NCBI GenBank assembly: GCA_041665005.1
Contig: JBAYJR010000008.1
Location: forward strand, 1,423 to 65,422
Reading direction: 5' to 3'
Origin: Candidatus Buchananbacteria bacterium
Lineage (GTDB): Bacteria > Patescibacteriota > Patescibacteriia > 2-01-FULL-39-33 > JBAYJR01
Length of the DNA: 64,000 nt
Part shown: piece by piece, positions 2,536 through 33,766 of the stretch
Numbering within the stretch: position 1 is the first letter of the stretch
Layout: each line of letters opens with the position of its first letter
The notes under the pieces: generated by a model
Databases searched by the model: none
The model's input: only the letters and a program-made list of their open reading frames with translations
Told to the model about the DNA's origin: nothing
Position numbers and translations under genes: made by a program

Positions 2536-4596
<2,061 letters not shown>

Positions 4597-4757: not shown

Positions 4758-4790
4758 TAATAATTAACTACTAAATTCTAACTAACTTTC

Positions 4791-6057: not shown

Positions 6058-6061
6058 AAAA

Positions 6062-8293
6062 TTATTTAATATTTAAATTTTTTGCTAACAATAAATATTG
6101 CTGGGCTAACACTGGCTTACCCATTTCATTATACAACAAACCAGCCCATTGATACCACTGGACTTGTTCTGGCTGTAATTTAATTAGATGCAAAACAATA
6201 CTTAAAGCTTCAGTTTTAGGGCCTATTTGATGGGTAATTTCTACTAAAATTTTAAGTATCTGCGGATCTAAGGATAAGTGATAAGCCTGCCAAAAACTAC
6301 TTTTAGCCAACGCTATTTTTTTTTGTTGAAAATAGACCTGCCCCAAATCCTGATAAGCCAAAGCTTGTTCCTGAGCAATTAACCGCCGATGCTCTTCATT
6401 AACTCGCCAATCAATTAATGGCGGATAAAGCGCCAAGGCTTGTTTAATTTGCTGTTCCGCTAAATCATATTTTTGCCAAAATAAATACAACTTGCCCCAT
6501 TCGGCCGGCAACCGTGCCATTTGTGGGCTAAGTTTTACCAAAGCCTTAAAGGTTTGTTCGGCAGCCAAAAAATAATCAGGTTTTAAATAATAACCCGCCA
6601 AGACTTGCCACTGAGCTAATTTTAATAAGGCTTCTGGCTCTAACCACAAATAATCAATTTGCTGTAAATTATTAAAACCTAAGTCAATCACCTGTTGTTT
6701 TTGCTCGGAAGTTAAATTAGGATTTAAAAAATTCTGCAACGACTGCGCTAATTGCCAACGATAATACCCTTCGCCACTATTTAAAGCAAAAACTCTCTCA
6801 TATGCCTTGATCATTTTTTGATAACCACCAACTCTTTCCCAAAATTTAGCTTGAGCGAAGTTTTGTTCCGCAGCTAATCTTTGATAATTAAAAAGCGTAA
6901 ACCAAACAAGCATTAAAGCTAAAACTACCACTAAAAAAATCTTAAACCAAACTGACAATTTTATTTGATAAATTTTTATTTGGGCTACTGGCGCAGCTAA
7001 TAAGGCGATAAACAACCAAAAATATAAACCACTAACCACAGTAGTAAAATTAAATTGATTAGCCAATAAATAACCGGCCAAAGCTAAAAATAAAAATTGA
7101 TTTAGCGGATCGATTGTAGTCTTTAAATTTAACCAAGCTAAAAAAACAATCAGGCCTAACACTGCTAGCCAAGCCAATAAACCCAAATAACCGCTGGTCA
7201 ACAATACATCCAAAGTTTCATTATGCGTTCGATCGGGAATAGTATTAATTTTTTCATGCAAAGCAATTTGCGGAATATAGGTGTCGGCCAAAACCAAACT
7301 TTGAGTTTCTTGACCATAACCCCAGGCCGGCAACTTTGGCAATTTACTAGCCGCCGCTTGCCAAAAAAGCCAACGCGAAGCCAAAGAACCATACTGCCAA
7401 TTAAATAAAGTTTGCCAACGAGTTTGTAAATTTTCTGTAAAACCCGGACGGGCCACGGTTTGTATTACTTGACCGCTATACTGCCAAACTAAAAAGCCAT
7501 AACCTAAACTTAACAAGATTAAACCGCTAACCAAAACCAACAACCAACGATAAAACTTTTTTTGGCTCAGCCAATAACCAACTAAGATAATAATTTGACC
7601 CAACAACCCCAGCCAAATAGTTCGCGAAAAAGTAAAAAATAATGCACTAAATTGCCCCACTAACAACAATCGCAACAACCAACGACTTGGCTTTAAACTT
7701 TGCCGCGTCTGATACCAAACTAAGGGCCAAGTTAGCAATAAAAATAAACCTAAAAAATTTGGTTGGCCAAAGGTGGAAAATACTCGCCAAGTAATACTGG
7801 GAGCTTCTGACCAAGCCACTACATCCAAGCCGGCTAACTGACACCAAGCGTAAATAATCACTAAAGCCACTGAACCAATAATGGCTTTAAGCCAATAACG
7901 TTTTTTATCAATCAAAAAAATTTGTAAAGCTAACCAAAAAAATAATAAATAATGCATTATTAGCCACAAACCCTGCTCCCGCCAATAAGAACCCCAAAAA
8001 CTTAAATGTGGACTAATCGAAAATATTGCAGCTAATACTTGAGTAAATAAAAAAATCGCTATTACTAACATCGCTTGCCCTTGCCAAACTAAATTTACTG
8101 AATCTAACCACAGGTTTTTTATCAACCAAACAATTAACAACAATTCAATCAACCAACAACCAATTACCGCTTTATCTAGTTCAAAAATATTCCAACCTCG
8201 CCAATTAAAATAAACTGGCACAATAAAAATAGTAACTGCTAAAATTGCCACTAAAACCGAGTTTAAAATCTTTACTAAATATTGCTTAGACAT
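6062..8293 (-). CDS. O-antigen-ligase (Wzy_C) family polytopic membrane protein with C-terminal TPR repeats. Putative pilin O-oligosaccharyltransferase (TfpO/PglL-like).
   Basis: 743 aa. About 12 TM helices in the N-terminal 450 aa with a Wzy_C-like core, then a C-terminal TPR-like repeat region (e.g. ...YLLLAKNLNIK). It lies immediately downstream of the pilin gene. Confidence 0.6.
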   Translation of the reverse strand: MSKQYLVKILNSVLVAILAVTIFIVPVYFNWRGWNIFELDKAVIGCWLIELLLIVWLIKNLWLDSVNLVWQGQAMLVIAIFLFTQVLAAIFSISPHLSFWGSYWREQGLWLIMHYLLFFWLALQIFLIDKKRYWLKAIIGSVALVIIYAWCQLAGLDVVAWSEAPSITWRVFSTFGQPNFLGLFLLLTWPLVWYQTRQSLKPSRWLLRLLLVGQFSALFFTFSRTIWLGLLGQIIILVGYWLSQKKFYRWLLVLVSGLILLSLGYGFLVWQYSGQVIQTVARPGFTENLQTRWQTLFNWQYGSLASRWLFWQAAASKLPKLPAWGYGQETQSLVLADTYIPQIALHEKINTIPDRTHNETLDVLLTSGYLGLLAWLAVLGLIVFLAWLNLKTTIDPLNQFLFLALAGYLLANQFNFTTVVSGLYFWLFIALLAAPVAQIKIYQIKLSVWFKIFLVVVLALMLVWFTLFNYQRLAAEQNFAQAKFWERVGGYQKMIKAYERVFALNSGEGYYRWQLAQSLQNFLNPNLTSEQKQQVIDLGFNNLQQIDYLWLEPEALLKLAQWQVLAGYYLKPDYFLAAEQTFKALVKLSPQMARLPAEWGKLYLFWQKYDLAEQQIKQALALYPPLIDWRVNEEHRRLIAQEQALAYQDLGQVYFQQKKIALAKSSFWQAYHLSLDPQILKILVEITHQIGPKTEALSIVLHLIKLQPEQVQWYQWAGLLYNEMGKPVLAQQYLLLAKNLNIK

Positions 8294-8331
8294 GTTCTTA
8301 TTATAACAAAAAATTAAAGAAAAAAAACAAA

Positions 8332-8379
8332 CCCCCCATCTTTTAAACGACTAGAGCTAATCGGCTAAAAGATGGGGGG
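8332..8379 (-). terminator. Strong rho-independent terminator after the pilin gene
   Basis: A perfect 14-bp inverted repeat (ccccccatctttta / taaaagatgggggg) separated by 20 nt, followed on the minus strand by a T-run. Confidence 0.65.
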
Positions 8380-8411
8380 TAAGCTTTTAAAGGATCCCCA
8401 AAAAACTTAAC

Positions 8412-8804
8412 TTATGGATTTGATAAACCCGATGGGGTAGCAGTATGGGTGCCGGCTGTAATATCACCAACCGCACTTTCTATCGAATAACCAATAGTAT
8501 AACTAGCGCCACTATCTCGTTGCGTATAAGTATACGTTGCGCCACCCGGACCGGGGTTAGTTGGTACTAAAGTCATATAAGTACCGATCGTACCACCAGA
8601 AGTCACCGTAGCTGGATAGCTGTTATTATCTGTATAATACAACTCTAAGGCAGTCTGAACTTGTTTAATATCAGACAAACGTCGAGCGTCCCGGGATTTT
8701 TGTCTAGCTGAATTTAAAGAAATTACCGCCAAAGTTGATAATAAACCAATAATAGCGATAACCACTAACAATTCAATCAAGGTAAAACCTTTTCGTTTAA
8801 TCAT
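8412..8804 (-). CDS. Type IV (major) pilin with a class III prepilin signal
   Basis: 130 aa. N-terminus MIKRKGFTLIELLVVIAIIGLLSTLAV shows the G|FTLIE cleavage/methylation motif and conserved E5. GGAGGTG RBS upstream, and a dedicated strong terminator. Confidence 0.85.
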   Translation of the reverse strand: MIKRKGFTLIELLVVIAIIGLLSTLAVISLNSARQKSRDARRLSDIKQVQTALELYYTDNNSYPATVTSGGTIGTYMTLVPTNPGPGGATYTYTQRDSGASYTIGYSIESAVGDITAGTHTATPSGLSNP

Positions 8805-8858
8805 GTCTTCACCTCCCCTCTCTTATATAGAATTAAATATTAAGTAAAAATACAAGCC

Positions 8859-9251
8859 CTATTTTAAACCAATAATCTTTTTAATCTTGGCAACCACTTC
8901 GGATGGCATAAAATGGGCTTTTATTAAATAATCTTTGGCCCCCATCGCTAAGCCCCGATCAACATCTCCTTTTTGCGAAAGATTAGTTAATAAGATAACC
9001 GGAATATCTTTAGTATCCTGACCTTTTTTTAAAGTTTCTAAAACCACAAAACCATTTATTTTTGGTAGAATTAAATCTAACAAAATAATATCTGGCACCT
9101 TTTTTTGCACCAATTCTAAGGCTTTTTCGCCATCCATAGCCAAGATTACTTCAAAATTCTCTAACTTAAACTTAGTGGCATACAGTTCTGCTAAAAAAGC
9201 ATCATCCTCAACCAATAAAATTTTAATTTTTTTGTCACTTTTGACTGTCAT
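8859..9251 (-). CDS. Single-domain CheY-like response regulator (PilH/PilG-like)
   Basis: 130 aa receiver domain (KILLVEDD...DIILLDLILPKINGF...K). It is embedded between pilB and the pilin gene. Confidence 0.8.
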   Translation of the reverse strand: MTVKSDKKIKILLVEDDAFLAELYATKFKLENFEVILAMDGEKALELVQKKVPDIILLDLILPKINGFVVLETLKKGQDTKDIPVILLTNLSQKGDVDRGLAMGAKDYLIKAHFMPSEVVAKIKKIIGLK

Positions 9252-9257
9252 AAATAA

Positions 9258-10502
9258 TTAACTAATATTTTTGATCACTTCTTCCAAGGTAGTTAGCCCC
9301 TGACTGGCTTTTATTATACCATCAACTGCTAAAAAGATAAACTCCGGATCTAATTTAGTCAAGCTCTCGGCCGTCAATTCGCCACCTTCAATGAGATAAT
9401 TTTTCAAGGGCTCATTTAATTCAAAAATTTCCGCCAAAACCATTCTACCCTTATAGCCTGTTTGGCTACAATGTGGGCAACCAGCGCCCCGATAAAAAAC
9501 CAAATTTTCGGGATCTATCAAACCTGTAGGAGTCGACTTAACTAACGCTTTGGCAATTTTAAGTAACCCAGGAGCCGGCGTGGTTTCTACTCGGCAATCG
9601 GGACAAATTTTACGCACTAACCTCTGACTAATAATTAAACCCAAAGCTTCGGTTAGCAAAAAAGTTGGTAAGCCCATTTCTAATAACCGCTTGACCGTGC
9701 TTAAAACATCTGAGGTGGCCAAAGAAGAAAAAACTTTTTTATTAAAGGTGGCTACCCAACCGGCTAATTCTACCGCCGTAACGCTATCCAAGGTATCTAA
9801 CAACAAAATATCAGGCTCTTGTTTTAAGGCAACCTGCAAGGCCTCATTTAAATTTGAATCGTGCAAAGAGCCTAAAGAAATTTGATTAACTCCCGACAAA
9901 TAGCGTTCAATCGGCTCTTCTAAAGTGGTAATATTTACCGCTTCACTGTTTAAAATATTTAACAACGTGTACAGGGTGGTGGTTTTGCCTGAATTAACTT
10001 TGCCCGTTACTAAAAACAGGCCACCGCGGGTTAATTTTTTTTCAATCTGACTAAGATGATAATCAGCAAAGCCCAGCTCCACTAAAGTTTGCGGTTGATC
10101 GTAAGCGCTAACTAAATGTAAAACTACTTTTTCGCCTTCAATCATCGGCAAAAAATAAACTAAAACGTTATAAATTTTTCCTTCATATTCAAGTTTATAA
10201 CTGGCTGCCTGGGGTTGCAAATCTTTGGCCGGCGGCAAACCGACTAATTGACGTAAAGCTTGTAGCAAAGAAACTAATACCGTCGCACTTAAAGTTAGCG
10301 AAGAATGCAAAATTCCATCCACGCGATAACGTATTCTTACCTCACCCGCGCTAGGTTCAATATGAATATCCGTCGCCCGACCGTCTAAAGCGTTTTTGAT
10401 AATCACCTCTAAAATCTTTTGTCCGGAAACCAAAGCTTCGATCGATTGATCAGCTTTAGTCAAAGCGGGAGTAACTGCTGTGAAATTATTTTTAACTGAC
10501 AT
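9258..10502 (-). CDS. pilB: Type IV pilus assembly ATPase (PilB/GspE family, short form lacking the N-terminal domain)
   Basis: 414 aa. Walker A GKVNSGKTTTL, Asp/His boxes, and a C-terminal tetracysteine motif (CPDC...CPHC) characteristic of GspE/PilB rather than PilT. Confidence 0.8.
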   Translation of the reverse strand: MSVKNNFTAVTPALTKADQSIEALVSGQKILEVIIKNALDGRATDIHIEPSAGEVRIRYRVDGILHSSLTLSATVLVSLLQALRQLVGLPPAKDLQPQAASYKLEYEGKIYNVLVYFLPMIEGEKVVLHLVSAYDQPQTLVELGFADYHLSQIEKKLTRGGLFLVTGKVNSGKTTTLYTLLNILNSEAVNITTLEEPIERYLSGVNQISLGSLHDSNLNEALQVALKQEPDILLLDTLDSVTAVELAGWVATFNKKVFSSLATSDVLSTVKRLLEMGLPTFLLTEALGLIISQRLVRKICPDCRVETTPAPGLLKIAKALVKSTPTGLIDPENLVFYRGAGCPHCSQTGYKGRMVLAEIFELNEPLKNYLIEGGELTAESLTKLDPEFIFLAVDGIIKASQGLTTLEEVIKNIS

Positions 10503-10504
10503 AA

Positions 10505-11584
10505 TTAAGGCACTAGATTACTTGACTGCCACACAAAATTAGCGGTAAAACTTTCTTGCTCAGTAACCGGGGTATTTAAGGTAAAAATTAAACCACTTAA
10601 ATTATCAATTTTTTGCCAAACCATTTCTTGACGCTTAACCACTGCCGCCGTAGTCGCTAAACCACTAACAGCAATCTGATTACCACTAACTTTTACTTCA
10701 CTAATTTTTACTCCAGGTAATAAGCCACTCCGCAAAGCTTGATAAACTTCTAACTGAACTAGGCTTTGTCGATTAGCTTGACCTGAAATATTATCTAAAA
10801 AATTTTGTTGCGCTGAATCATAGTTATTAATTACGCCTTCTAGACCACTCACCCGTTTTTCTAGGCCGCTAATTTTTTGTTCCAAAAGATTGTTACGCTG
10901 CAATAAATAATTATCAGTCGTACGTAAAATTAAATAAAAAGATAACACAATAATAATAATTAACAAATAAACCAGAGCGGGAAAAAACGACGCCCAGTCA
11001 AAAAAATCATTTGGCGCTGTCTTAGCTTTAATTTTTTCTGCCCCGGCTGTTAAACCAAGTTTAGGGGTAGGAGTAGAAATTAATTTCTCAGAATTCAGGC
11101 GATTAAAATATTGCCAAAAACCTGGCCGAACTACCGGCTTGTTTAAAGGTTTAATCACTGGTTTAGTGATATTGGCCGGCACCGAATTTTTAGCAACTGC
11201 TTTATAAGTAGCTGGCGGTGGCAAATTAGGTAATTTAACCGTGCTCGCCATTTTAGGCTTAAAACTAAACCACCGGCGCCAAAAACTTCGCCTAACCACA
11301 ACTACTGGCTTTTTAAACGGCGCTTTAGGCTGAGGCTTAACCGCCACTCGGATCTGTCTGATTTCCGGCAATGGCGGACGACTAATTGGTCGACTGGTTT
11401 TAACCACGGGGGGCTGAAAAAATAATCTCTGCCATAAAGACAGACTGGGCTGTTTAACGATAGAATTCTTGGCTTGAGGTGAAACGTACTTAATGTCTGC
11501 CGAGGGCTTTTGTTTTTGCAATTTTTTTTGCAACTTTTCCTCAGACCAACGCAGCTCGGGTGGCAATAAATTAACGTTGGGCAT
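10505..11584 (-). CDS. PilN/PilO-like inner-membrane pilus alignment protein with atypical architecture
   Basis: 359 aa. N-terminal PilN-like NLLPPELRW motif, then about 170 aa of Pro/Lys-rich linker, one TM helix (FFPALVYLLIIIIVLSFYLIL), a coiled coil and a periplasmic domain. Located between pilM and pilB. Confidence 0.45.
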   Translation of the reverse strand: MPNVNLLPPELRWSEEKLQKKLQKQKPSADIKYVSPQAKNSIVKQPSLSLWQRLFFQPPVVKTSRPISRPPLPEIRQIRVAVKPQPKAPFKKPVVVVRRSFWRRWFSFKPKMASTVKLPNLPPPATYKAVAKNSVPANITKPVIKPLNKPVVRPGFWQYFNRLNSEKLISTPTPKLGLTAGAEKIKAKTAPNDFFDWASFFPALVYLLIIIIVLSFYLILRTTDNYLLQRNNLLEQKISGLEKRVSGLEGVINNYDSAQQNFLDNISGQANRQSLVQLEVYQALRSGLLPGVKISEVKVSGNQIAVSGLATTAAVVKRQEMVWQKIDNLSGLIFTLNTPVTEQESFTANFVWQSSNLVP

Positions 11585-11615
11585 AATGTTTTATTTTGTT
11601 TTATTTTTTAATTTT

Positions 11616-12710
11616 TTAAATAATTTCTCGCATTGCTAAGCCAACGGCGATAGACATCCGTGAACCAACTACATCCAAAACCGGTTTTAATTCTTCCGGA
11701 TACATCACTCTCGCCCAAGGATCCCCCAAATATACCTTAGTGCCTAAAATATTTGCTAAAAATTGTGGTAATTCTGGCAATAGCGCCCCGCCACCAGTTA
11801 AAATTACTTTTTCTATTTTTTGACCGGGTTGCTGTTGAAACAAATTATACGTGTATTTGATTTCATTAATAATCGGATTGAGAGCGGTTTGAAAAATTTC
11901 CAATAAATATTGTTGCCCTTTAATTTGCGTTAAGTCTCTTTTGACTTGCTCCGCCTGCCAAACCGATAATTTTAATTTTTCGGCAATTATTTTAGTCGCT
12001 GCCCAACTGCCATGTTGCAAACTCCGATGCAACAAGGGTAAACCATTTTGTACTAAAATAATTGTAGAAGTAGAAGCACCTAAATCCACTAACATGATAG
12101 AGGCCTGATCGTTGCCAATTAAAGAACGAGTCAAAGCAAAATCTTCAGTTTCCAAACTTAATAAATTTAAATCTGCGGCCTTAAAAATATTAATAAAATT
12201 TTCTACCAACCTTTTAGCGGTACCGGTCAACAAAACTTTCAAGTAAGGTTGTTGTTTAGTTAAAATTTGTTTTACCGCACCGTTGCCGTTTTCAAAAAAT
12301 TTACTACTCTTGGCCGCTAAGGGTTCGGGCCTAGCTTCGGCCACCACCTTCCAATCAATAATTACTTGATCCAAAGGTAACGGAATTAATTTTTTAGCTT
12401 CACTAAAAACTGCCTCCTTTAATTCTTTCTTTTCTAACTTAGGCAAAGTAATAATTGAAGTATAAACATCAAAACTCGGCAAAGACGCCACTACTTGACG
12501 CGAAGTAGTTTTGGCTTGCACGCAAATCTCTTTTAAAACTTTAGCCACTTCTAGGGTAGCTGGCGTAAAACCAATTTGCGATAAATTAACCAAGTTTTCA
12601 GAAAAACCGTAGGTAATTAGCTTAGGGCGTTTTTTGTCATTAGCTAGCTCCACCACCTTTAAGCCGGCACTGCCCAAATCAACCCCCAAAAAACTTGAAT
12701 TTCTAGCCAT
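11616..12710 (-). CDS. pilM: Type IV pilus assembly protein PilM (actin-like ATPase)
   Basis: 364 aa. N-terminus FLGVDLGSAGLKVVEL matches the PilM/FtsA-like sugar-kinase fold. It is the first gene of the operon. Confidence 0.8.
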   Translation of the reverse strand: MARNSSFLGVDLGSAGLKVVELANDKKRPKLITYGFSENLVNLSQIGFTPATLEVAKVLKEICVQAKTTSRQVVASLPSFDVYTSIITLPKLEKKELKEAVFSEAKKLIPLPLDQVIIDWKVVAEARPEPLAAKSSKFFENGNGAVKQILTKQQPYLKVLLTGTAKRLVENFINIFKAADLNLLSLETEDFALTRSLIGNDQASIMLVDLGASTSTIILVQNGLPLLHRSLQHGSWAATKIIAEKLKLSVWQAEQVKRDLTQIKGQQYLLEIFQTALNPIINEIKYTYNLFQQQPGQKIEKVILTGGGALLPELPQFLANILGTKVYLGDPWARVMYPEELKPVLDVVGSRMSIAVGLAMREII

Positions 12711-17037: not shown

Positions 17038-17961
17038 ATGGCCTTATCTTTAGCCGAGGAACTGAAAAACAAACGCCAACTAACTAACGCTAAGTTTATT
17101 AAACAATTTAGCCAAGTTTTGAGCAACCAGCCGACTGGTTTAGTTAAATCACAAATACCAAAAACTTTTATCCCTACCACTAATTCTAACCTAAGCGAAA
17201 GTAAGGCCACACCAAGAACTAACCTAAAAAGTTTTAACCAAACAAATGCCAATCCTGATTATGTTTCTCGCCCTGCCATTCAATCGACCGCTAATTATCC
17301 TGCGGACTCCGGCGATAGTTTAGAAGCTGAAATACCAGAAAAAGAACCCGGCGCCATTAGACAAGCTGCCGATCGGGGCTTAGAACAACTTAAAGAAGAA
17401 GCCAAAAATAGATTAAAGCAAAAAGCCAAAAAAGAATTAGAAAAAAGATTTCCCGAACAATACCAAAAATATCAAGAATTTGCTAGAAATTTAAATAGTT
17501 TAAGAGGCACGGCCCAAGCTGGTCAAAATCTTAGCACTGCTACCGCCGAAGGTGTTACTGGCGGGGCGGCAGCGGGAACCGTAGCCGAAGGTGCGGTTGG
17601 TGGCGCCGCCGGAACAGTGGCTAGCGGTGGAGCTGCAGCTGGAGGAGCCGCAGCCGGTGGAACTGCAACCGCGGCGGCTGGTGGCACGGCTACTGCCGCT
17701 GGTGGCACGGCGGCCGCGGCTGGTAGCGTCTCAATTGGTTGGATTATCCTAATTATTGTAGTTGTTATTTTGGTTATAATTTTTATCTTTATGCTAATTA
17801 ATATCGCCGCTGACCAAACCAACAGCAAAGATAATAACATACAACTTATCCAACAAGGAGCGGCAGCACGCCAACAACTGCTTATTGAACAACAAGAGGC
17901 CTCGCAGGCAGCAATTGATGAAAAAAATTCGCGAGCTGGCGGCAGTGTAGACCAACAATAA
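17038..17961 (+). CDS. Hypothetical protein with a Gly/Ala-rich low-complexity tract and a C-terminal TM anchor
   Basis: 307 aa. A charged coiled-coil-like N-terminal half, about 70 aa of GGAAAGT-type repeats, then a TM helix (IGWIILIIVVVILVIIFIFMLI). The antisense track ORF 17523..17978 is a mirror artefact of the GC-rich repeat. Confidence 0.5.
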   Translation: MALSLAEELKNKRQLTNAKFIKQFSQVLSNQPTGLVKSQIPKTFIPTTNSNLSESKATPRTNLKSFNQTNANPDYVSRPAIQSTANYPADSGDSLEAEIPEKEPGAIRQAADRGLEQLKEEAKNRLKQKAKKELEKRFPEQYQKYQEFARNLNSLRGTAQAGQNLSTATAEGVTGGAAAGTVAEGAVGGAAGTVASGGAAAGGAAAGGTATAAAGGTATAAGGTAAAAGSVSIGWIILIIVVVILVIIFIFMLINIAADQTNSKDNNIQLIQQGAAARQQLLIEQQEASQAAIDEKNSRAGGSVDQQ

Positions 17962-17983
17962 ACCAATAATTTAACCAAATAAT

Positions 17984-19228
17984 ATGATAATTAGCTCTTG
18001 GCCTTGGAAAAAAATTTTAATGATCGCCGGTTTTTTAATTTTGGCGGTATTTTTAGCGGTCTTACTTTATTTAGTTTTTTTTCAACCCGCCACTACCCCT
18101 AACGAACCCCTTAACAACAATCTTAATCAAGATGAGTTGCCTAATACTAATTTAAATTTAAATGCCCAATCAAATACCAATAGTAGTGGCTTAACCCCAT
18201 CAGGAGAAATAACTCAACCACAAACCAATACTAATACCGCCCCCGCCCTGGTGGCTAATGGTGGCTTAACCGAAGTTAACCAATTAACCGAAAATTCCGT
18301 GATTAGTTTAACCAGCGAAAGTGCCAAGGTTATCTACTACCAAGCCACTGACGGCAAATTTTATACCTTAAACGCCAACGGTCAACCGCAGGCCCTAAGC
18401 GATAAAATTTTTTACTCCGTGCAAAAAGCCACTTGGTCACCGGACCGCAGTCAAGCTATTTTAGAATATCCCGATGGCAGCAAAATTGTTTATAATTTTC
18501 AAACTAAAAAACAAGTCACCCTACCTAAACATTGGCAAGATTTTTCTTGGTCACCTAGCGGGGGGCAAATTGCCGCCAAAAGCTTAGGCCTAGATTCGGA
18601 CAATCGCTACATTATTGTCAGTAATGCTGATGGTAGCCAAGCAAAAATTATTGAAAGCATTGGCAACAACGCCGATAATTTTATTATTAATTGGTCACCC
18701 AACCAACAAATTATTGCCTCTTACAGCAACGGCTTAGATTTTGATCGGCAAAAAATTTATTTCGTTGGTTTAAATCAAGAAAATTTTAAAGGTATGACCG
18801 TGCCGGGTCGTGGCTTGCAAACTAAGTGGTCTACGGCCGGCGATTTATTGCTTTATAGTGTTTACACTAGCACCAACGGTTACCGCCCGGAATTATGGGT
18901 GGCTTCTGGCTTACCCAACACTATGGGCGAGGCCAGGCGCAGTCTCAAAGTTAATACCTTTGCCGATAAATGCGCTTTTGCTGATAACCAAACTTTATAT
19001 TGTGCCGTGCCAACTGACCCCGTAGAAAATAGCGGTCTACTACCGGATTTACTTAAAAATATTCCCGATAAATTACAAAAAATTAATCTTGGTACCGGAC
19101 TAGTCACAGAAATAGCCACCCTACCAACCAATTACACCATCAACAAATTAATTGCCGCCTCAGATAATTCGGCTATCTATTTTACCGCCAGCAATCAAAT
19201 GGGTTTATTTTCAATAAAACTTAAATAA
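17984..19228 (+). CDS. Membrane-anchored or secreted beta-propeller (TolB/PD40-like) protein
   Basis: 414 aa. N-terminal TM/signal anchor, an S/T/N/P-rich linker, then repeats of WSPDxxxIA / WSPSGGQIA resembling PD40 blades. Confidence 0.5.
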   Translation: MIISSWPWKKILMIAGFLILAVFLAVLLYLVFFQPATTPNEPLNNNLNQDELPNTNLNLNAQSNTNSSGLTPSGEITQPQTNTNTAPALVANGGLTEVNQLTENSVISLTSESAKVIYYQATDGKFYTLNANGQPQALSDKIFYSVQKATWSPDRSQAILEYPDGSKIVYNFQTKKQVTLPKHWQDFSWSPSGGQIAAKSLGLDSDNRYIIVSNADGSQAKIIESIGNNADNFIINWSPNQQIIASYSNGLDFDRQKIYFVGLNQENFKGMTVPGRGLQTKWSTAGDLLLYSVYTSTNGYRPELWVASGLPNTMGEARRSLKVNTFADKCAFADNQTLYCAVPTDPVENSGLLPDLLKNIPDKLQKINLGTGLVTEIATLPTNYTINKLIAASDNSAIYFTASNQMGLFSIKLK

Positions 19229-19233
19229 AAAAT

Positions 19234-19989
19234 ATGCCATTCATTAAAAAAAATGCTTCCAAAAAATTTGACCGCCAATTTGTTCTGGCTTCCTTATTAA
19301 TTTTGGCCTTACTGGTCGCCACTTTAGTTTTTTTAAGAATTAGTCTAGGCGGCCTATTGACCGCTTTAAAAACTAACAGCACCGACATTACTTTGGGCGC
19401 TTTAGAAAAATTCCAAACTGGCGATTTATTAATCACCAAAGCCGACCCCTTTAGCCCCGAGGCTTCAGGTGAACCAATTATTAAAGACACTGACCAAACT
19501 CAAGGCCCGCGCAACGCCCCAATTACTTTAGTAGAATACACCGATTTTTTATGTCCTTATTGCGCCCAAATCCAACCGCTAATTAAACAAGCACAAGCAG
19601 CCTATCCCGGAAAAATTCGCTTAATTTTTAAAGACGCCCCCAACGAAAATTTACACCCCGGCAGTTGGCTAGCTCATCAAGCGGCCTGGTGCGCCCAGAA
19701 TCAAAACAAATTCTGGCCCTTTGCGGAGTTATTATGGGCACAAGTAAACTTTCAACCCACCGCTACGCAATTAACCGCTTTAGCAAAAATTTTAAAACTA
19801 AATCTGGCACAATTTAACACTTGTTTAAGCGAACAGGAAACTCTAAAATGGATTTGGCTTAATAATAAAGAAGCAGAAGCTTTAAATATTAGCAACACTC
19901 CCTTTTTTTATCTTAACCAAAAACCTTTAGGTAGTACCCTAACCTGGGAAAGTCTGAAACAAACCATTGATCAAGAATTAGCCAAATAA
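19234..19989 (+). CDS. DsbA-family thiol:disulfide oxidoreductase (thioredoxin fold)
   Basis: 251 aa. N-terminal TM anchor and a CxxC active site (FLCPYCAQI). Confidence 0.7.
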   Translation: MPFIKKNASKKFDRQFVLASLLILALLVATLVFLRISLGGLLTALKTNSTDITLGALEKFQTGDLLITKADPFSPEASGEPIIKDTDQTQGPRNAPITLVEYTDFLCPYCAQIQPLIKQAQAAYPGKIRLIFKDAPNENLHPGSWLAHQAAWCAQNQNKFWPFAELLWAQVNFQPTATQLTALAKILKLNLAQFNTCLSEQETLKWIWLNNKEAEALNISNTPFFYLNQKPLGSTLTWESLKQTIDQELAK

Positions 19990-19994
19990 TTTTT

Positions 19995-20993
19995 ATGCCG
20001 AAACTAAAAAACATCTACCTAGCCCTAATTGTTTTAGGCTTGATGTTTTTACCCCTAGCGCCGATGCTTGCCGAAACCACTGTTAAACTACAGGTGCCGC
20101 TATATGGTACTAACGAAATTAGTGGCGAAGCTAGTACCATTTTGCCCACCTACATCGGCTTGTGGTTTAATTTAGTAGTTGGCACCGCTGGAGTGCTGGC
20201 CGCCATTTATATTATGTGGGGCGCTTTTAAGTGGCTAACTGCCGCCGGTAATGCCGCTACCATTAAAGACGCTCAAGAAACTATTTACAGTGCGGTGGCC
20301 GGCTTAATTATCGCCTTATTGGCTTATTCTATTTTATATATTATTAATCCCAACTTAATCAAACTACAATTGCCCGGCTTGTCATCCACAACTTATTCTA
20401 CCGAACCAGCTACTCCCCCAACCACTCAATGCAAGCAAACTCTGCCAACTTCCAACCCCTGTTCCGAGCAATATATTAATTCTGTACTCAATAGCCATCC
20501 TGAAATAAAAAAGTTATGCTCTAACATGGATTCCGGTTATATGTCGCAAATTTGCAGAATAGAAAGTTCTGGTGGCGTACCTACCCTGGTTTCTGGTACT
20601 GATAAATGTAAAGATGGCACCAGTTTTTCTTATGGACTATTTCAAATAAACATTGCGGCTCAAGGTCAAAACATTCAAGCTATAACCAACTCAAGCGCTT
20701 GCACCAATCTAATTATTAATGACAGCACTGGCCAAAATGGCAAACCACTTCAATACTCCAATGGTCGCCAAACCTATGACAGCTATACTGCCTGTAAAGA
20801 CGCCAATCCTGGTAAATTTTGCTACGTTAGTAAATGGGATTGTCGCGCCTCATCTTCCACCTCGGTAGCAGAATGCAAAAAATTACTTTTTGACCCCGAA
20901 ACCAGCATTTTACTTGCTTGCAAAATTTATGGCCGAGAAGGTTATAATGCCTGGCCGGTTAGTAATAAAAAATTACAAGCTTGCACTAATTAA
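19995..20993 (+). CDS. T4SS-pilin-like (VirB2/TrbC-like) membrane protein fused to a C-terminal lysozyme-like (VirB1/SLT-like) Cys-containing domain
   Basis: 332 aa. Signal peptide plus two hydrophobic segments (IYIMWGAFKWLTAAGN...LIIALLAYSILYIINP). C-terminal ...ICRIESSGG...SFSYGLFQIN...GYNAWP resembles the ES...GLMQIN...YNAG transglycosylase motifs. Confidence 0.5.
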   Translation: MPKLKNIYLALIVLGLMFLPLAPMLAETTVKLQVPLYGTNEISGEASTILPTYIGLWFNLVVGTAGVLAAIYIMWGAFKWLTAAGNAATIKDAQETIYSAVAGLIIALLAYSILYIINPNLIKLQLPGLSSTTYSTEPATPPTTQCKQTLPTSNPCSEQYINSVLNSHPEIKKLCSNMDSGYMSQICRIESSGGVPTLVSGTDKCKDGTSFSYGLFQINIAAQGQNIQAITNSSACTNLIINDSTGQNGKPLQYSNGRQTYDSYTACKDANPGKFCYVSKWDCRASSSTSVAECKKLLFDPETSILLACKIYGREGYNAWPVSNKKLQACTN

Positions 20994-21001
20994 TTATCTT
21001 T

Positions 21002-21442
21002 ATGAAAAAAATCAAATTTATTCTTAGTCTAATACTTGTTCTACTGGTGGCCGGGCTACTACTTTGGCGCTTTATGCTGGAACCGAAAATTCCTAAATTA
21101 GTCATTAATACTAACCAAGGGGCAATAGAAATAAATTTGCCAAAGTCAGTTGGCCAAAAAATTAGCACCGAACCACAACGCGAAGATTATTCTCTCAAGC
21201 AAACTGACACTTACGAAATATTTGCTTACGCCTTTGGTGGTGATCAAAGTTTTTTAATTTCTCTGAAACAATATTCAGCTGTCGTCAGAACCGAAGCCGA
21301 AACTAGCTTTTTAAACTCTTTAGGAATTACTAAAAGCGCCGCTTGCAAATTGGCGGTCCTAGAGTCATTTACTGGTCTACCAGAACTAGCGGGCATTAAT
21401 TACGGCTTGAGTTTTTGTCCTGATTCCTTACCGTTAAATTAA
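21002..21442 (+). CDS. Small membrane-anchored hypothetical protein
   Basis: 146 aa with an N-terminal TM helix. It sits between the two pilin-like paralogs. Confidence 0.4.
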   Translation: MKKIKFILSLILVLLVAGLLLWRFMLEPKIPKLVINTNQGAIEINLPKSVGQKISTEPQREDYSLKQTDTYEIFAYAFGGDQSFLISLKQYSAVVRTEAETSFLNSLGITKSAACKLAVLESFTGLPELAGINYGLSFCPDSLPLN

Positions 21443-21455
21443 TTTTAAAATATTT

Positions 21456-22394
21456 ATGTCAAAAAAAATCTTCTTCGGTCTAACCCTACTACTCTTAACT
21501 TTTACTATTGCTACTCCCCTATTGGCCGTGGATAAAAGTGCCGCTTTACAAGTAGACCTTGGCTACGGCACCGTAGTGGCAAATTTAGAAACTTATATCG
21601 GCTGGTGGTATAAGTTAATTATGGGCACAGTGGGCGTGTTGGCCACGATTTATATTATGTGGGGTGGTTTTAAATGGCTAACCGCGGCGGGTAGTTCTTC
21701 ACAAATTTCCGACGCCCAAGAAACCATCAAAGCCGCCATCGCCGGGTTGTTGATCGCTTTATTTTCTTTTTCCATACTTTATATTATTAATCCTAATTTA
21801 CTTAATCTAAATACTGAAGGAATAGGAAGTAATGATACTACAACAAGTACCGCCGACAATACTCCCGGTTGTTGCATTAATGAATATGAATCTTTAAAAC
21901 ATTCCTGTTCATATATCATCAAAAGCAACTGTACCACCAGTGATACAGTTAAATTTTACTCTAATACAACCTGCGATAAAGCAAGCAATTATTGTGCATC
22001 TACAAATTCATCAGTATATTGTAGAAGTGACTTGGCTGGTTATAGTTTAATAAAAAAAGGAGACCAGGCGACAATAAATGCCGTAAACAGAAAAACTAAT
22101 TGCAGTTATCTAGAACGTCCAATGTATTCGTCTTATGACGGAAGTGAGGCAACCACTGCTGAATTTATAGCACTTGGTTACACCAGTTACCCACAAAAAT
22201 GTTTATACGAAAGCTGTACAAACACTATATCCTGCTCTGATAAAACCGACGGGACAGCCTGTGATTATCCTAATCAAGCCGGAACACAAAAATGTTTCCG
22301 AGGAGTCTGCAAAACTTGTGTCAATTCTGGAATTAGCTGCAGTAGCGCTTCTTGTTGTAATAGTTTAACCTGTACAAACAACCTCTGCAAATAA
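21456..22394 (+). CDS. T4SS-pilin-like paralog with a Cys-rich (knottin-like) C-terminal domain
   Basis: 312 aa. The N-terminal 120 aa are paralogous to the ORF at 19995, at both protein and DNA level (IYIMWGGFKWLTAAGS...DAQETI...SILYIINPNL). The C-terminal 190 aa contain more than 30 Cys. Confidence 0.5.
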   Translation: MSKKIFFGLTLLLLTFTIATPLLAVDKSAALQVDLGYGTVVANLETYIGWWYKLIMGTVGVLATIYIMWGGFKWLTAAGSSSQISDAQETIKAAIAGLLIALFSFSILYIINPNLLNLNTEGIGSNDTTTSTADNTPGCCINEYESLKHSCSYIIKSNCTTSDTVKFYSNTTCDKASNYCASTNSSVYCRSDLAGYSLIKKGDQATINAVNRKTNCSYLERPMYSSYDGSEATTAEFIALGYTSYPQKCLYESCTNTISCSDKTDGTACDYPNQAGTQKCFRGVCKTCVNSGISCSSASCCNSLTCTNNLCK

Positions 22395-23849: not shown

Positions 23850-23892
23850 ATAAAAGACGCCTTAGATTTTACTCTAAGGCGTTTGTTGTTAT
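23850..23892. terminator. Bidirectional rho-independent terminator (radA on plus, DksA-like gene on minus)
   Basis: Hairpin gacgccttaga-tttta-ctctaaggcgt flanked by an A-run and a T-run. Confidence 0.6.
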
Positions 23893-26683: not shown

Positions 26684-26758
26684 TGGTGCGCTCGACAGGA
26701 ATCGAACCTGTATTGCAAGCTCCGCAAGCTTGTGTCCTATCCGTTGAACGACGAGCGC
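26684..26758 (-). tRNA. tRNA, probably tRNA-Arg. I read the anticodon loop as UUGCGGA, i.e. anticodon GCG. CCA is encoded.
   Basis: Hand-folded cloverleaf of 75 nt. Acceptor stem GCGCUCG/CGAGCGC, T-arm ACAGG-UUCGAUU-CCUGU, D-loop with GG, G37 and A73. The isotype call is uncertain. Confidence 0.75.
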
Positions 26759-28535: not shown

Positions 28536-28575
28536 CTATCTTATTCCTCTCTCTTCCGCTCATTACTACCCACTG

Positions 28576-28662
28576 CGGAGAGAGTGGGATTCGAACCCAC
28601 GGAACCAATTAAGGTTCGGCAGTTTAGTAAACTGCTGATTTAAACCGCTCATCCATCTCTCC
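28576..28662 (-). tRNA. Type II Ser-like tRNA whose anticodon loop I read as UUACUAA, i.e. anticodon ACU (unusual A34)
   Basis: Hand-folded, 87 nt. Acceptor GGAGAGA/UCUCUCC, G73, 3-bp D-stem GAU/AUC, anticodon stem GCAGU/ACUGC, a 5-bp-stem variable arm and T-arm GUGGG-UUCGAAU-CCCAC. Confidence 0.7.
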
Positions 28663-29317: not shown

Positions 29318-30016
29318 TTAACCCTTAGCCAAAACTAAACCAAACACTTTACCCACTCCCGCTTGTTTTAAAACTTTAGCGCATTCTTGCATAGTTGAAC
29401 CTGTCGTATAAACATCGTCAATTAACAAAATATCCCGACCAACCAGATCAACTGCCTTTACCAGAACAAAGGCCTTTGTGATATTACCAAAACGTGATCG
29501 ATGTTTTAATTGGGCTTGTGGTTTGGTATAACGTTGACGCTGTAAAACTTTTTGCACTTGTGATGGCTCAAAAAAATTAATGGCTAAATTATAGGCTTGG
29601 TTAAAGGTCCGCCATAAATAACGTTTAGGGTGCAGTGGCACCGGCACCACGATAAAATTTTTAAAACTAAAATCGTTGGCTAGTAATAACGGTTTAAACT
29701 TTTGACCTAACAAATCCGCTACTTCTTGAATAAAATTATACTTAAAACTGGCAATAATATTTTGCCAGATCGGTTGAGAATAATTGCCCAAAAACCACAA
29801 ACCATCTAAATAATTTATTGGCTTAGCCAAACACTGGTGATTAACTTTTTGCAACTGCTGGCAAGCCGGGCAATAAAATTTTAAAATTTGGGATAACAAA
29901 TTAAAACATTTGGCACACAGCCACTTCCCCTCTTGACCGCAGTTAACACAACTGGCCGGGAATAATATTTCCAGACACTCCTGCTTGATCTTAGCTAACC
30001 ATGATTTTACTGCCAT
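29318..30016 (-). CDS. comFC: ComF-family phosphoribosyltransferase (competence protein ComFC-like)
   Basis: 232 aa. N-terminal double zinc ribbon (CVNCGQ...CAKC...CPAC) and a PRTase motif ILLIDDVYTTGSTM. Confidence 0.8.
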   Translation of the reverse strand: MAVKSWLAKIKQECLEILFPASCVNCGQEGKWLCAKCFNLLSQILKFYCPACQQLQKVNHQCLAKPINYLDGLWFLGNYSQPIWQNIIASFKYNFIQEVADLLGQKFKPLLLANDFSFKNFIVVPVPLHPKRYLWRTFNQAYNLAINFFEPSQVQKVLQRQRYTKPQAQLKHRSRFGNITKAFVLVKAVDLVGRDILLIDDVYTTGSTMQECAKVLKQAGVGKVFGLVLAKG

Positions 30017-30579
30017 TTGGCTTCATCCACCAACCATTGTGAACCAACTTTTAGTAACCTAACCACAATAGCTTGATAATAAATTTTATCTGGACCATTA
30101 GCACTTGCTTGCTGACGCTGAGTATTAACCAAAACACTGGCGCTATCACTGGTGATATTTTTAACTTGACTACTTAAGGCCTTGGTAGTAACTCCGCTAT
30201 AAATTTGTGCACTAGTCTTAGCCAAAGTTTTAATTTGAGTATTCAAATAATCTTGCCAACTTTTAGTTGCCACCAACTTTAATTCTTGTAGATTACTAAA
30301 ATTATTTTGATTAGAATAACTACCAAACCGTTCCGCGAAATCACTGGCCAACCTAGTCACCGAAACAGTCGCTAATTCGGTTTCGGACATTTTTTTAGCT
30401 GGCCCTGGCGAGGCCTGATTGTTGCTATTAGTTGCTGAGTTTAAATTAGTTTGATTAGTATTAGCATAAAATTGCGGTCGGGTAATAAAATAGTAAACCA
30501 ACCACAAAACCGCTAGACCAATTAAGGCTACCACTAAAACAATTATTCCTTGCTGACGTTTAGTAAGATTTAATTCCAT
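30007..30579 (-). CDS. Membrane-anchored hypothetical protein
   Basis: 190 aa with an N-terminal TM helix and a Ser/Thr/Asn-rich periplasmic domain. It overlaps the comFC start by 10 nt. Confidence 0.4.
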   Translation of the reverse strand: MELNLTKRQQGIIVLVVALIGLAVLWLVYYFITRPQFYANTNQTNLNSATNSNNQASPGPAKKMSETELATVSVTRLASDFAERFGSYSNQNNFSNLQELKLVATKSWQDYLNTQIKTLAKTSAQIYSGVTTKALSSQVKNITSDSASVLVNTQRQQASANGPDKIYYQAIVVRLLKVGSQWLVDEAKWQ

Positions 30580-30600
30580 AAAATAATTTTAAGCTAAAAA

Positions 30601-32502
30601 TTAAAGATTTTTGGCTTCAGCCTGATTAATAGTTGCTTCGGCAAACTCTCTCTTGGCCGCTTCAATTTCTAATATTTGTCGCGGATCCGAGGTAATTAAC
30701 TGATCTTCGGTATAAGAGGCCACTACTTTAATCGCCGCGTGTTTATCACCGGCAAAAAATATTCCTTCACCCGGTGCACTTTCTAATAATAACAACTTTT
30801 CTCCCTGCGTTAGTAAAAAAGTTTTTTGCACCAAATCAATGGCCGCAGTAGATTGTCTAAGCAATAGCCGCAAAGAAGAATTAGTAATTACGGCCTGCCC
30901 CTCAGGTGATAATAAAAAATCATTAACATCCTGTGAAATAGTAGTCACCCCCAAATAGTAATGACGCGCCCGCTTAACTAAAGCATACAAAAATTTTGCA
31001 GAATCTTCATACATCATCAGCCACCAAGCCTCATCAATAATTAAAATACGTTTTTTTAATTCCGAACGAATCACATTCCAAATATAATAAATAATGGTAT
31101 AAATGGCCATGGGCCGTAATTCATCTTCTAAATCACGAATCGAAAAAACTACCAATTGACTACGCATTTCAACATTTGTTGGATGGTTTAATAAGCCAGA
31201 AAAAGTTCCTTCGGTATATTTTTTTAAACGTAAAGCCAAATCGGCTCCACCTTCCATCCCTTCTAAAATTTCTTGCAAATCCTGTAAAATTGGCATTTCC
31301 GGTTTAGTCTGCAAATCTGTTCCGGGGGTGATGTCTTTTTTGGCATAAGCTTCTAAAATCGCCCGATCCATAATTGAGTCTTCTTGGTGCGTAAATTGTC
31401 CCAACATTATTCGCAACAAACCTTTAATAGCAATGGAAGCGCTCAAAATAATATTAGCCGTTGTGCTTTCTTTTTCAACCGACAAGGGCAAATCAAACGG
31501 ATTAATTTTACTTTCCGAATTTAAGGAAACATTAATATAAGTACCGCCCACCGCCTCGCATAAATGCCGATATTCTCTTTCCGGATCAATAATGATTACA
31601 TCAGTGCCTAGCATTAGGCTACGCAAAACTTCTAGTTTAACTGCGTAAGATTTGCCCGCGCCCGAGGTAGCAAACACTACCATATTGGCATTGGGCAAAG
31701 AAAAACGATCAAATAAAATTAAACTATTATTGTGACGATTAATACCATACAAAACCCCATTATCAGAGGTCAGGTCAGCCGAAGCAAACGGAAAAAAAGA
31801 AGCGGCCGGCGAAGTATTCATATTAGCGGTAATTTGCAATTCATCATTTAACAACGGCAAAGTAGAATTAAAACCTTGTTCAGCTTGAAATAAAACTTTC
31901 TTAGAATAAACTTGGCGTGAACCAAAAATCGCTTCCACTCGATCAGTAATTTCCTCTAATTCTTCTTTACTAAAAGCATACAAGGTAACATAAATTGCCA
32001 CTTGAAAAAATCTTTCCACACCTTGAGTTAAATCATCCCGCAATTTTTCCATATCACGCAAGGCCGTTTCTCGCAACGGATCGCGAGGCGCACCTTTTTC
32101 GGCATCCGCTGATAACTGGGCCTCTAAATTACCTACTTTATTACGTAATTGTTTTAAAATAATCGCAGACTCCACTGGATAAAAATACATGGCAATATCC
32201 AAAGTAGAATCTAAGTTGATAATCGCATTAAACCAACCCATGCTAATATAACGCGGGTAAGTAATAACAAAAATTGTCCGTACAAAACGATCGTTTAGCC
32301 GTAAAAAATTAGCCGATACCTCAAATGCGGCCGGCGCAATTAAGTCCCGAATAGAAACTAAACCTTGTCGATAAATCTGTTCCTCTTCTAAGGTTACCTT
32401 GGCTTCTTCTAAGCTTTTGGGCGCTACCGCTTTAGCGCGGTCTAAAAAAGTACCGGCCTGATTATCCGCAATCTGATCTTTTATTTGTTTGGGGTCAAAC
32501 AT
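30601..32502 (-). CDS. VirB4/TrbE/CagE-family T4SS ATPase, C-terminal ATPase part
   Basis: 633 aa. Walker A FATSGAGKSYA and Walker B IIDEAWWLM (the DEAW motif typical of VirB4). Confidence 0.8.
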   Translation of the reverse strand: MFDPKQIKDQIADNQAGTFLDRAKAVAPKSLEEAKVTLEEEQIYRQGLVSIRDLIAPAAFEVSANFLRLNDRFVRTIFVITYPRYISMGWFNAIINLDSTLDIAMYFYPVESAIILKQLRNKVGNLEAQLSADAEKGAPRDPLRETALRDMEKLRDDLTQGVERFFQVAIYVTLYAFSKEELEEITDRVEAIFGSRQVYSKKVLFQAEQGFNSTLPLLNDELQITANMNTSPAASFFPFASADLTSDNGVLYGINRHNNSLILFDRFSLPNANMVVFATSGAGKSYAVKLEVLRSLMLGTDVIIIDPEREYRHLCEAVGGTYINVSLNSESKINPFDLPLSVEKESTTANIILSASIAIKGLLRIMLGQFTHQEDSIMDRAILEAYAKKDITPGTDLQTKPEMPILQDLQEILEGMEGGADLALRLKKYTEGTFSGLLNHPTNVEMRSQLVVFSIRDLEDELRPMAIYTIIYYIWNVIRSELKKRILIIDEAWWLMMYEDSAKFLYALVKRARHYYLGVTTISQDVNDFLLSPEGQAVITNSSLRLLLRQSTAAIDLVQKTFLLTQGEKLLLLESAPGEGIFFAGDKHAAIKVVASYTEDQLITSDPRQILEIEAAKREFAEATINQAEAKNL

Positions 32503-32511
32503 AAAAAATAA

Positions 32512-33216: not shown

Positions 33217-33276
33217 AGTTATTCAATTATAGCAAATTTTACCTAATTTTTAAATTTTTACCAACCTAAAACTGAT

Positions 33277-33723: not shown

Positions 33724-33766
33724 GTTTTTTACTAAATTATTTTACTAATCTGCTAACTCGCTTATC

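Follow-up and report, generated by a model that had tools for sequence, protein, structure and literature searches.

What can two pilin-like proteins contribute to a type IV secretion system (T4SS) if they are two to three times as long as is usual for their family and end in unrelated C-terminal domains? The question is raised by a run of six plus-strand genes, here called g1 to g6, at 17038-22394 of a 64-kb window of a 71-kb contig from a Candidatus Buchananbacteria metagenome-assembled genome (MAG); "the window" below means this whole stretch. The two proteins are encoded by g4 (19995-20993, +; 332 amino acids (aa); NCBI record WCW02_03705) and g6 (21456-22394, +; 312 aa), and a T4SS core lies on the other strand of the same window. 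The Patescibacterial T4SS includes arrays of VirB2-like pilins, which are essential in Southlakia epibionticum, and VirB1 homologs are missing from most Patescibacterial genomes (PMC12102498, PMC10633639, PMC12857230). The only Patescibacterium tested genetically requires its T4SS for epibiotic growth, and the role of this system has been called completely unknown (PMC10633639, PMC11665869, PMC12102498). We found that g4 and g6 are extended VirB2-like pilins, that different domains are found behind the same pilin module in related loci, and that g5 travels with one type of these domains. The reading that we favour, with a probability of about 0.6, is that 17984-22394 is the pilin and accessory arm of a Gram-positive-type (MPF-FATA-like) T4SS, whose modular pilins present peptidoglycan-acting and recognition domains outside the membrane in a VirB1-like role at the cell's own wall.

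Pilin modules with exchanged C-terminal domains

An earlier, sequence-only reading had described g4 and g6 as paralogs that share an N-terminus made of a signal peptide and two hydrophobic helices and that resemble VirB2/TrbC-like pilins, and this description held throughout. The two proteins are 57% identical over the first 123 residues (E 2e-38), the motifs IYIMWG(A/G)FKWLTAAG, DAQETI and SILYIINPNL are present in the paralogs, and a hydropathy scan shows three hydrophobic segments in each. In HMMER searches both matched PF18895 (T4SS_pilin, VirB2-like), g6 with 28.1 bits and g4 with 24.8 bits, slightly below the curated cut-off of 26.6 bits. A local hidden Markov model (HMM) of the pilin module, built from ten relatives, recovered g4 and g6 at E 1e-38 to 1e-40 and detected no further PF18895-like open reading frame (ORF) in the 64-kb window. 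The match of g6 to TrbC/VirB2 (PF04956) is weak (E 0.0057), among 39 extended relatives 15 reach E<=1e-3 with TrbC, and both proteins weakly match NF045849, a pilin-like family of mycoplasma integrative and conjugative elements. In the NCBI annotation g6 is called 'pilin'.

In g4 a signal peptide (+; aa 1 to ~26, with a putative cleavage site) precedes the pilin module at 20082-20378 (+; aa 30-128), a two-helix hairpin that ends in an invariant N-P-x-L; the hairpin of g6 lies at 21552-21821 (+; aa 33-122). AlphaFold2, run on full-length g4 and g6 with 22-row alignments, predicted a helix-loop-helix hairpin in both proteins with a predicted local distance difference test score (pLDDT) of ~80-93, the g4 helices covering aa 46-82 and 87-117. 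A Foldseek search of the PDB with the g6 model gave no match at E<=0.001, as a helical hairpin is too generic. A profile of the pilin module found 351 matches among 5.8 billion proteins, the best 120 of which are all 102-188 aa long. By this measure g4 and g6 are not small proteins of the usual size (about 100-190 aa), which makes a plain filament-subunit role doubtful. In many relatives the first pilin helix is directly preceded by a short loop of the type Cys-x(4-5)-Cys (CEEGSC, CTAGQPC or CDDQEC; examples are P0006, P0008, P0010 and the ORF at 1542-2642 of locus L003), and this loop is lacking in g4 and g6.

The C-terminal parts of g4 and g6 had been called completely different, and a pairwise comparison indeed found no similarity between them. 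The g4 tail had further been described as a lysozyme-like domain with 10 Cys; the lysozyme-like character stood, by transitive homology to the SLT_3 family, and the count was corrected to 12 Cys, all in the C-terminal part. The domain covers 20430-20984 (+; aa 146-330) and contains the motifs C-R-I-E-S-S-G-G, Y-G-L-F-Q-I-N and Y-N-A-W, with a putative catalytic Glu190-Ser191 (20562-20567, +) followed by the GLFQIN motif. Compared with PDB sequences, it comes closest to silkworm c-type lysozyme (E 0.26). When a profile was made from the g4 tail and its sole close relative, P0005, an exhaustive HMMER search retrieved 590 cluster representatives, and 207 of these reached E<=1e-10. PF18896 (SLT_3, 'Lysozyme like domain') is matched by 37 of 38 sampled domains of this family, with a best E of 1.6e-11, and PF01464 (SLT) by 15 of the 38. 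The g4 tail scores 102.7 bits against the family profile built without g4. A Glu, a Ser, a Gly, a Gln and an Asn are invariant across 38-150 members, and a Trp and several Cys are also invariant or nearly so. Taken with the pilin module, this transitive homology means that g4 is, as far as profile matches tell, a VirB2-like hairpin joined to a divergent SLT_3 domain, and the tail would be expected to have enzymatic activity. Fusions of pilin modules to wall-acting enzymes are common, since 107 of the best 150 representatives of the SLT_3 family have a pilin-like N-terminus. We also considered whether the g4 tail could be a bacterial c-type (GH22) lysozyme. This candidate was dropped, because a search of the PDB with the 38-member family profile gave no lysozyme match and Pfam backs SLT_3/SLT.

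Two further observations concern the SLT_3 family. Eighteen of its best 150 representatives are at least 700 aa long (e.g., P0140, P0168, P0179, P0208 and P0223; 700-1165 aa). Most of those of 950-1165 aa have one or two hydrophobic segments directly before a C-terminal SLT_3 domain and resemble pilin-SLT_3 proteins with a huge N-terminal extracellular extension; the local pilin HMM missed them. In Candidatus Moraniibacteriota (L004, CP064994.1), a pilin-SLT_3 protein of 552 aa with 43 Cys, encoded at 8726-10381, heads an array with seven more pilin genes; two of their products are also rich in Cys, with 15 and 12 residues.

For the g6 tail, a 190-aa domain with more than 30 Cys had been proposed. 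The tail is about 174-188 aa long, and the number of Cys is 20, all of them in the C-terminal part. This Cys-rich domain (21870-22391, +; aa 139-312) has no relative among 5.8 billion proteins or in 39 loci. Its last six Cys fit a cystine-knot-like spacing, as judged from the pattern alone.

The diversity of such tails became apparent in loci fetched from relatives (labelled L001-L025 and so on), of which L011-L025 are the closest by pilin module (40-55% identical). The fetched loci contain 116 pilin ORFs; in 64 of them the tail is <40 aa long, in 41 it is at least 100 aa, and the tails of these 41 extended pilins fall into at least 22 unrelated sequence clusters. In syntenic relatives the neighbouring genes are 35-68% identical to those of the window, but the alignments of g4 and g6 stop after the pilin module, the end of which is marked by the invariant N-P-x-L and a following linker rich in Ser, Thr, Pro and Gly. 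The first pilin slot is occupied by SLT_3 together with g5 in the window, by SLT in L015 (PF01464, E 5e-18) and, according to sequence clustering, in L011, by a YkuD L,D-transpeptidase domain in L017, by a GH24 Phage_lysozyme domain in L012, L016, L021, L022 and L002, and by unknown domains in L013 and L019. The second slot has a recognisable domain in none of the relatives. When 39 extended pilins were compared with Pfam, GH24 was found five times, SLT_3 four times (nine times with the local HMM), SLT twice, and SLT_2, glucosaminidase, YkuD, PG_binding_1 and PKD once each. All recognisable tails are thus related to peptidoglycan except the single PKD.

Partner genes and the neighbouring secretion system

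The gene between the two pilins, g5 (21002-21442, +), had drawn no comment in the sequence-only reading. It encodes a transmembrane (TM)-anchored protein of 146 aa from an undescribed family with two conserved Cys (ACKL ... GLSFCP). Homologs of g5 directly follow the pilin-SLT_3 gene in eight of nine loci including the window, the exception being L009. In L001, L004, L005, L006, L007, L008 and L010 they start 7-40 nt past it. The MAGs that carry them include Moraniibacteriota, Niyogibacteria, Paceibacterota and Saccharibacteria, among others. In 29 distinct loci the pilins have no SLT_3 domain, and none of these loci contains a g5 homolog (Fisher p 1.8e-7). Going by this distribution, g5 is a dedicated partner of SLT_3. 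No small gene, g5-like or other, stands behind the GH24, SLT and YkuD fusions, where the second pilin comes next. A comparison of the g5 family with Pfam and the PDB gave no match. The Saccharibacteria locus L007 keeps the same arrangement of pilin-SLT_3, g5 and pilin. A coiled-coil protein encoded directly upstream of it, at 3542-4834 of that locus, shows Peptidase_M23-like motifs when inspected by eye and may be a second wall-acting enzyme in the same cluster.

Upstream of the pilins, g2 (17984-19228, +) encodes a protein of 414 aa with an N-terminal TM anchor and a TolB-like beta-propeller. It had been taken for a PD40 propeller. Pfam PD40 gave no match at E<=1, with weak generic beta-propeller matches, and the propeller itself was recovered with the profile of the g2 family, which matched the TolB beta-propeller in the PDB at E 2.6e-6. 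Two Cys, C330 and C340, are invariant. Homologs with 35-45% identity lie directly before dsbA or the pilins in L011-L025, and others adjoin pilin-SLT_3 in L006, L008 and L009.

The product of g3 (19234-19989, +) is a membrane-anchored DsbA-like thiol:disulfide oxidoreductase, as had been recognised from its CPYC motif, which we located at C107-P-Y-C110 behind an N-terminal TM anchor at aa 16-34. It matches Thioredoxin_4 with 96.8 bits (E 2e-27; cut-off 23.2) and DSBA with 44.1 bits (E 2.7e-11; cut-off 25.6). Neither a DsbB nor a VKOR partner turned up among the window ORFs scanned against Pfam. A DsbA gene stands directly upstream of extended pilins in seven loci (L002, L013, L015, L017, L018, L019 and L024), six of them distinct, as L017 and L018 give identical matches and were counted as one. 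In L013, L015, L017/L018, L019 and L024 its place is between g2 and the first pilin; L002, where the remaining neighbours differ, has it immediately before the pilin-GH24 gene. On the short contig L020 it is directly upstream of a truncated pilin ORF.

The first gene of the run, g1 (17038-17961, +), encodes a low-complexity protein of 307 aa with a Lys/Glu-rich stretch, a Gly/Ala-rich stretch and one TM helix (aa 236-254), and without Cys. No homolog of g1 was found in any fetched locus. In relatives its slot, between clpC or the T4SS operon and g2, holds hydrophilic low-complexity proteins with C-terminal TM segments that have no detectable sequence similarity to g1.

All six ORFs are where they had been placed, tightly packed on the plus strand with 5-22 nt between neighbours. 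Spacing does not set them apart, however: clpC stops 7 nt upstream and radA begins 13 nt downstream, and since the same tight spacing continues up to clpC and down to radA, it does not define a six-gene unit. The sole strong terminator-like hairpin of the gene run lies after radA, at 23855-23884. In a scan of the block, promoter-like and terminator-like sites were as numerous as expected from shuffled sequence, so that the sequence gives no operon call. The base composition of the block is unremarkable. A recent transfer or an origin from a mobile element was considered and rejected, as there is no compositional sign of it and g4 has no tblastn match in plasmid or phage collections.

The T4SS core spans 30007-38896 on the minus strand, opposite to the pilin block, and its nearest core gene, virB4, is ~8 kb from that block. 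It comprises a gene for a 190-aa TM protein (30007-30579, -) directly after virB4, the VirB4 gene (30601-32502, -), a gene for a TrsD-like N-terminal part of VirB4 (32512-33216, -), a PrgI/VirB3-like gene (33277-33723, -), and a VirB6/TrbL-like gene (35603-38896, -), with two unknown ORFs (-) between the PrgI and VirB6-like genes. VirB4 is thus encoded as two proteins, an N-terminal TrsD-like one of 234 aa and an ATPase of 633 aa, and the same split was seen in all related loci. Neither a relaxase nor a coupling protein turned up in Pfam scans of the larger ORFs of the window.

Gene order connects this core with the pilin block. The order lemA-htpX-clpC-X-g2-[dsbA]-pilin-pilin-radA, with X at the position of g1, is kept in L011-L025. 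In L015, L022 and L025 the opposite strand then carries recG, comF, the 190-aa gene and virB4 at a distance of ~7 kb, in the same layout as in the window. In L024 the T4SS operon leads straight to X-g2-dsbA-pilin-radA on one strand, and in the distant Patescibacteria L006, L008 and L009 the same-strand genes virB6-prgI-trsD-virB4 are followed after 1-2.5 kb by a pilin-SLT_3 gene. This contiguity and the conserved synteny suggest that the block from g2 to the pilins serves the VirB3/4/6 apparatus, in support of what had been suspected for the pilin-like genes. Judging from gene order, an inversion probably separates the pilin block from the virB4 operon in the window.

Some other features of the window were recorded. 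The 190-aa TM protein, which has no Pfam match, keeps its position in L015, L022, L024 and L025 (25-33% identity) and may be an analogue of VirB8; a structure-based analysis of Southlakia epibionticum found no VirB8 homologue (PMC12102498). A 2862-aa ORF without Pfam match (38907-47495, -) adjoins the VirB6-like gene and is followed by a gene for a 272-aa protein with a bacterial TSP3 repeat (47510-48328, -), and together they may represent giant surface proteins belonging to the T4SS locus. Just upstream of lemA, a set of type IV pilus genes (5308-12710, -) encodes a PilD prepilin peptidase, an O-antigen-ligase-like/TPR protein, an N-methyl pilin, a response regulator, a PilB/T-type ATPase and PilM, and lies <20 kb from the T4SS locus. 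A leucyl-tRNA synthetase of 1172 aa (53861-57379, -) has a Ser_hydrolase / alpha-beta hydrolase insertion at residues 611-794, and a stand-alone ORF with the same Ser_hydrolase match is found 4 kb away (61280-61903, -). ARAGORN predicted a tRNA-Arg with anticodon GCG (26684-26758, -) and a tRNA-Ser with anticodon ACT (28575-28662, -), the latter beside tRNA-Ser(GCT) and tRNA-Ser(TGA); both wobble choices are unusual in bacteria.

Weighing the possible roles

If the block is an arm of the T4SS acting on the cell's own wall, its parts could work together as follows. Sec would export g4 and g6, with removal of their signal peptides, and the VirB2-like hairpin would enter the membrane loop-inward, leaving its two ends on the outside and the long C-terminal domain facing the cell wall. 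The membrane-anchored DsbA, or a DsbA encoded elsewhere, would make disulfides in the tails, in g2 and in g5. The hairpin would be the module recognised by the VirB4/VirB6 machine and would carry the tail to the secretion site or the filament. At the secretion site, the SLT_3 domain of g4 with its obligate neighbour g5 would cut peptidoglycan and fill the otherwise missing VirB1 role. The orphan Cys-rich domain of g6 would act as a variable surface or recognition module, and the TolB-like propeller of g2 would be a conserved envelope partner.

Several observations weigh against this reading or against single steps of it. g4 itself matched none of the Pfam families SLT, SLT_3 and Lys at E<=1. 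AlphaFold2 predicted the C-terminal domains of both g4 and g6 with pLDDT <50, which makes a fold comparison of these domains impossible. In the PDB, the 38-member family profile gave weak matches to pancreatic RNase (RNase A; E 0.015) in a Cys-rich stretch, although these are probably compositional noise from the Cys pattern. With typical family members as short as the 102-188 aa given above, an appendage of ~200 aa on each subunit may not fit a VirB2-type filament. DsbA is not at the site in L011, L016, L021, L022, L023 and L025, i.e., in about half of the relatives, and its presence is unrelated to the number of Cys in the adjacent pilins: L013 has DsbA and pilins with 0 and 2 Cys, L011 has no DsbA and pilins with 4 and 14 Cys, and the pilins beside DsbA in L013 and L002 have 0-2 Cys. 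The earlier proposal of a disulfide catalyst encoded beside its Cys-rich substrates is thus borne out by the adjacency of DsbA and pilins in relatives but not by the Cys content of those pilins. A functional link is plausible in view of the conserved Cys in g2, g5 and the SLT_3 domain, and g3 could plausibly form disulfides there. Finally, the swapping of enzymes at one syntenic slot is easier to reconcile with a fast-evolving function aimed at the host than with VirB1 housekeeping.

This last point leads to an alternative that we regard as possible but rather unlikely, in which the filament either displays the extended pilins, built in at its tip or along its surface, or passes them on as polymorphic effectors; their swappable domains would act on the host wall, and g5 would be an immunity protein or inhibitor. 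In its favour, both termini of the pilin are on the outer surface in the solved VirB2-type pili (F-pilus and T-pilus). A constant N-terminus followed after N-P-x-L by unrelated C-termini (the 22 or more clusters among 41 extended pilins), and four wall-acting enzyme families at one syntenic slot between neighbours that are 35-68% identical, also fit it, and domain swapping as such favours an attack on the host wall. The strict coupling of g5 to SLT_3, directly downstream as immunity genes are, agrees as well, and a role of lytic transglycosylases in compromising host envelopes has been proposed for Patescibacteria (PMC11665869). However, the GH24, SLT and YkuD fusions have no partner gene, so that immunity is no general feature, and g5 matches no known immunity or inhibitor family. 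In the literature covered, moreover, polymerisation of a Patescibacterial pilin into a T4SS filament is not demonstrated. Only tentatively, then, do we propose that VirB2-like pilins are a modular presentation scaffold, with the T4SS filament or base bearing swappable domains for peptidoglycan cleavage and host recognition, through which the host wall would be breached where the cell attaches, and with g5 as an inhibitor of, or immunity protein against, SLT_3. If true, this would provide a mechanism for the essential, unexplained T4SS of epibiotic Patescibacteria. Whichever wall is the target, the frequent enzyme fusions, the swapping of enzymes and the SLT_3 partner protein together offer concrete candidates for taking the secretion channel through it, and the arrangement in L007 makes the idea testable in Saccharibacteria, a class with cultivated, genetically tractable members.

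The block might also have nothing to do with secretion. In that case the hairpin would be a mere anchor, g4 a housekeeping autolysin, g6 a protein of the cell's own envelope, and DsbA and the propeller general envelope factors, with the proximity of the T4SS being historical. Such a role would agree with the fact that the block is flanked by the housekeeping genes clpC and radA at distances of 7-13 nt and lacks an internal terminator, with its ordinary base composition, and with the independence of DsbA from Cys content. The lemA, htpX, recG and comF region is moreover syntenic throughout the relatives, which makes the conserved neighbourhood alone weak evidence. We nevertheless consider this explanation improbable, because the anchor is a PF18895/TrbC-type module found in arrays with short pilins, because distant Patescibacteria keep pilin-SLT_3, g5 and g2 right after virB4 although other neighbours differ, and because the block of L024 is the tail of a T4SS operon. 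Less probable still, and the least credible of the explanations, is that the tails are cleaved off after N-P-x-L, which would free soluble secreted enzymes and leave a short pilin for the filament. C-terminal trimming is established for TrbC, through TraF processing in RP4, and for Ti VirB2. The invariant N-P-x-L at the module boundary with its Ser/Thr/Pro/Gly-rich linker would suit a cleavage site, and no short pilin is encoded in the window or within 10 kb in L015, L022 and L025. This absence, however, applies to the 64 kb of the window out of a contig of 71 kb, the block shows neither a TraF-like nor another dedicated peptidase, and the explanation is speculative. We retain the arm of the T4SS that acts on the cell's own wall as the preferred reading.

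Comparison with known systems

Pilin arrays are known from Patescibacteria, and both domain families are in Pfam; the polymorphic enzyme fusions and the SLT_3/g5 pair appear in no article of the literature searched. We found no article on pilin-enzyme fusions in Patescibacteria or the candidate phyla radiation, and PF18896 is unmentioned in that literature. The closest known counterparts are the Patescibacterial VirB2-like arrays (Wang et al. 2023, PMC10633639; Quinonero-Coronel et al. 2025, PMC12102498). These share with g4 and g6 the PF18895 family, the signal peptide and two-helix hairpin, the occurrence as two or more divergent paralogs in tandem or with one non-pilin gene between them, the linkage to virB4, prgI and virB6, and the chromosomal location. 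They differ in length, the pilins SEML1_0014-0019 of Southlakia having ~126-190 aa, whereas g4 and g6 add predicted extracytoplasmic tails of 175-200 aa. In Southlakia epibionticum the wall hydrolase is a separate protein and not a pilin fusion, and the two articles (PMC12102498 and PMC10633639) make no mention of enzyme fusions, a g5 partner, a TolB-like propeller or DsbA.

The predicted function of g4 resembles that of the VirB1-type and Gram-positive hydrolases (VirB1, PrgK of pCF10, TraG of pIP501, TcpG and CwlT), which are encoded with a T4SS, have a lysozyme-like or SLT-type domain outside the membrane and presumably clear a local passage through the wall for the machine. The versions from Gram-positive systems are, like g4, membrane-anchored. 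However, the anchor of g4 is a pilin hairpin behind a cleavable signal peptide instead of a simple N-terminal TM helix, its domain belongs to the Cys-rich SLT_3 family and has the dedicated neighbour g5, and the enzyme type is exchanged among close relatives.

The association of g3 with the pilins has parallels in disulfide oxidoreductases associated with a T4SS or a pilus, such as TrbB of the F plasmid and BdbDC of Bacillus subtilis, which acts on ComGC. In each case a thioredoxin-fold oxidoreductase is encoded with, or needed for, Cys-containing components of a secretion or pilus system. g3 differs in being a TM-anchored DsbA-like protein of a monoderm-type Patescibacterium, and its linkage is found in about half of the relatives and is independent of Cys counts.

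In overall design g4 and g6 recall the modular type IV pilins PilB and PilC of Streptococcus sanguinis, in which a pilin module is fused to a functional globular domain displayed on the filament. Those proteins belong to type IV pili, with a class III signal peptide and a prepilin peptidase, whereas g4 and g6 are predicted to be Sec-exported and are of the VirB2 type; filament display has been shown for the former and may, by analogy, apply to the latter. A constant targeting part joined to a variable, often peptidoglycan-directed C-terminal enzyme is likewise the hallmark of polymorphic toxins and of the X-Tfe/X-Tfi pairs of Xanthomonas and Stenotrophomonas. In these systems targeting relies on XVIPCD, Rhs or LXG, whereas here the corresponding part is a membrane hairpin pilin module, and a partner gene accompanies the SLT_3 type only. 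For that type the likeness extends to the small gene directly downstream, which travels with the domain.

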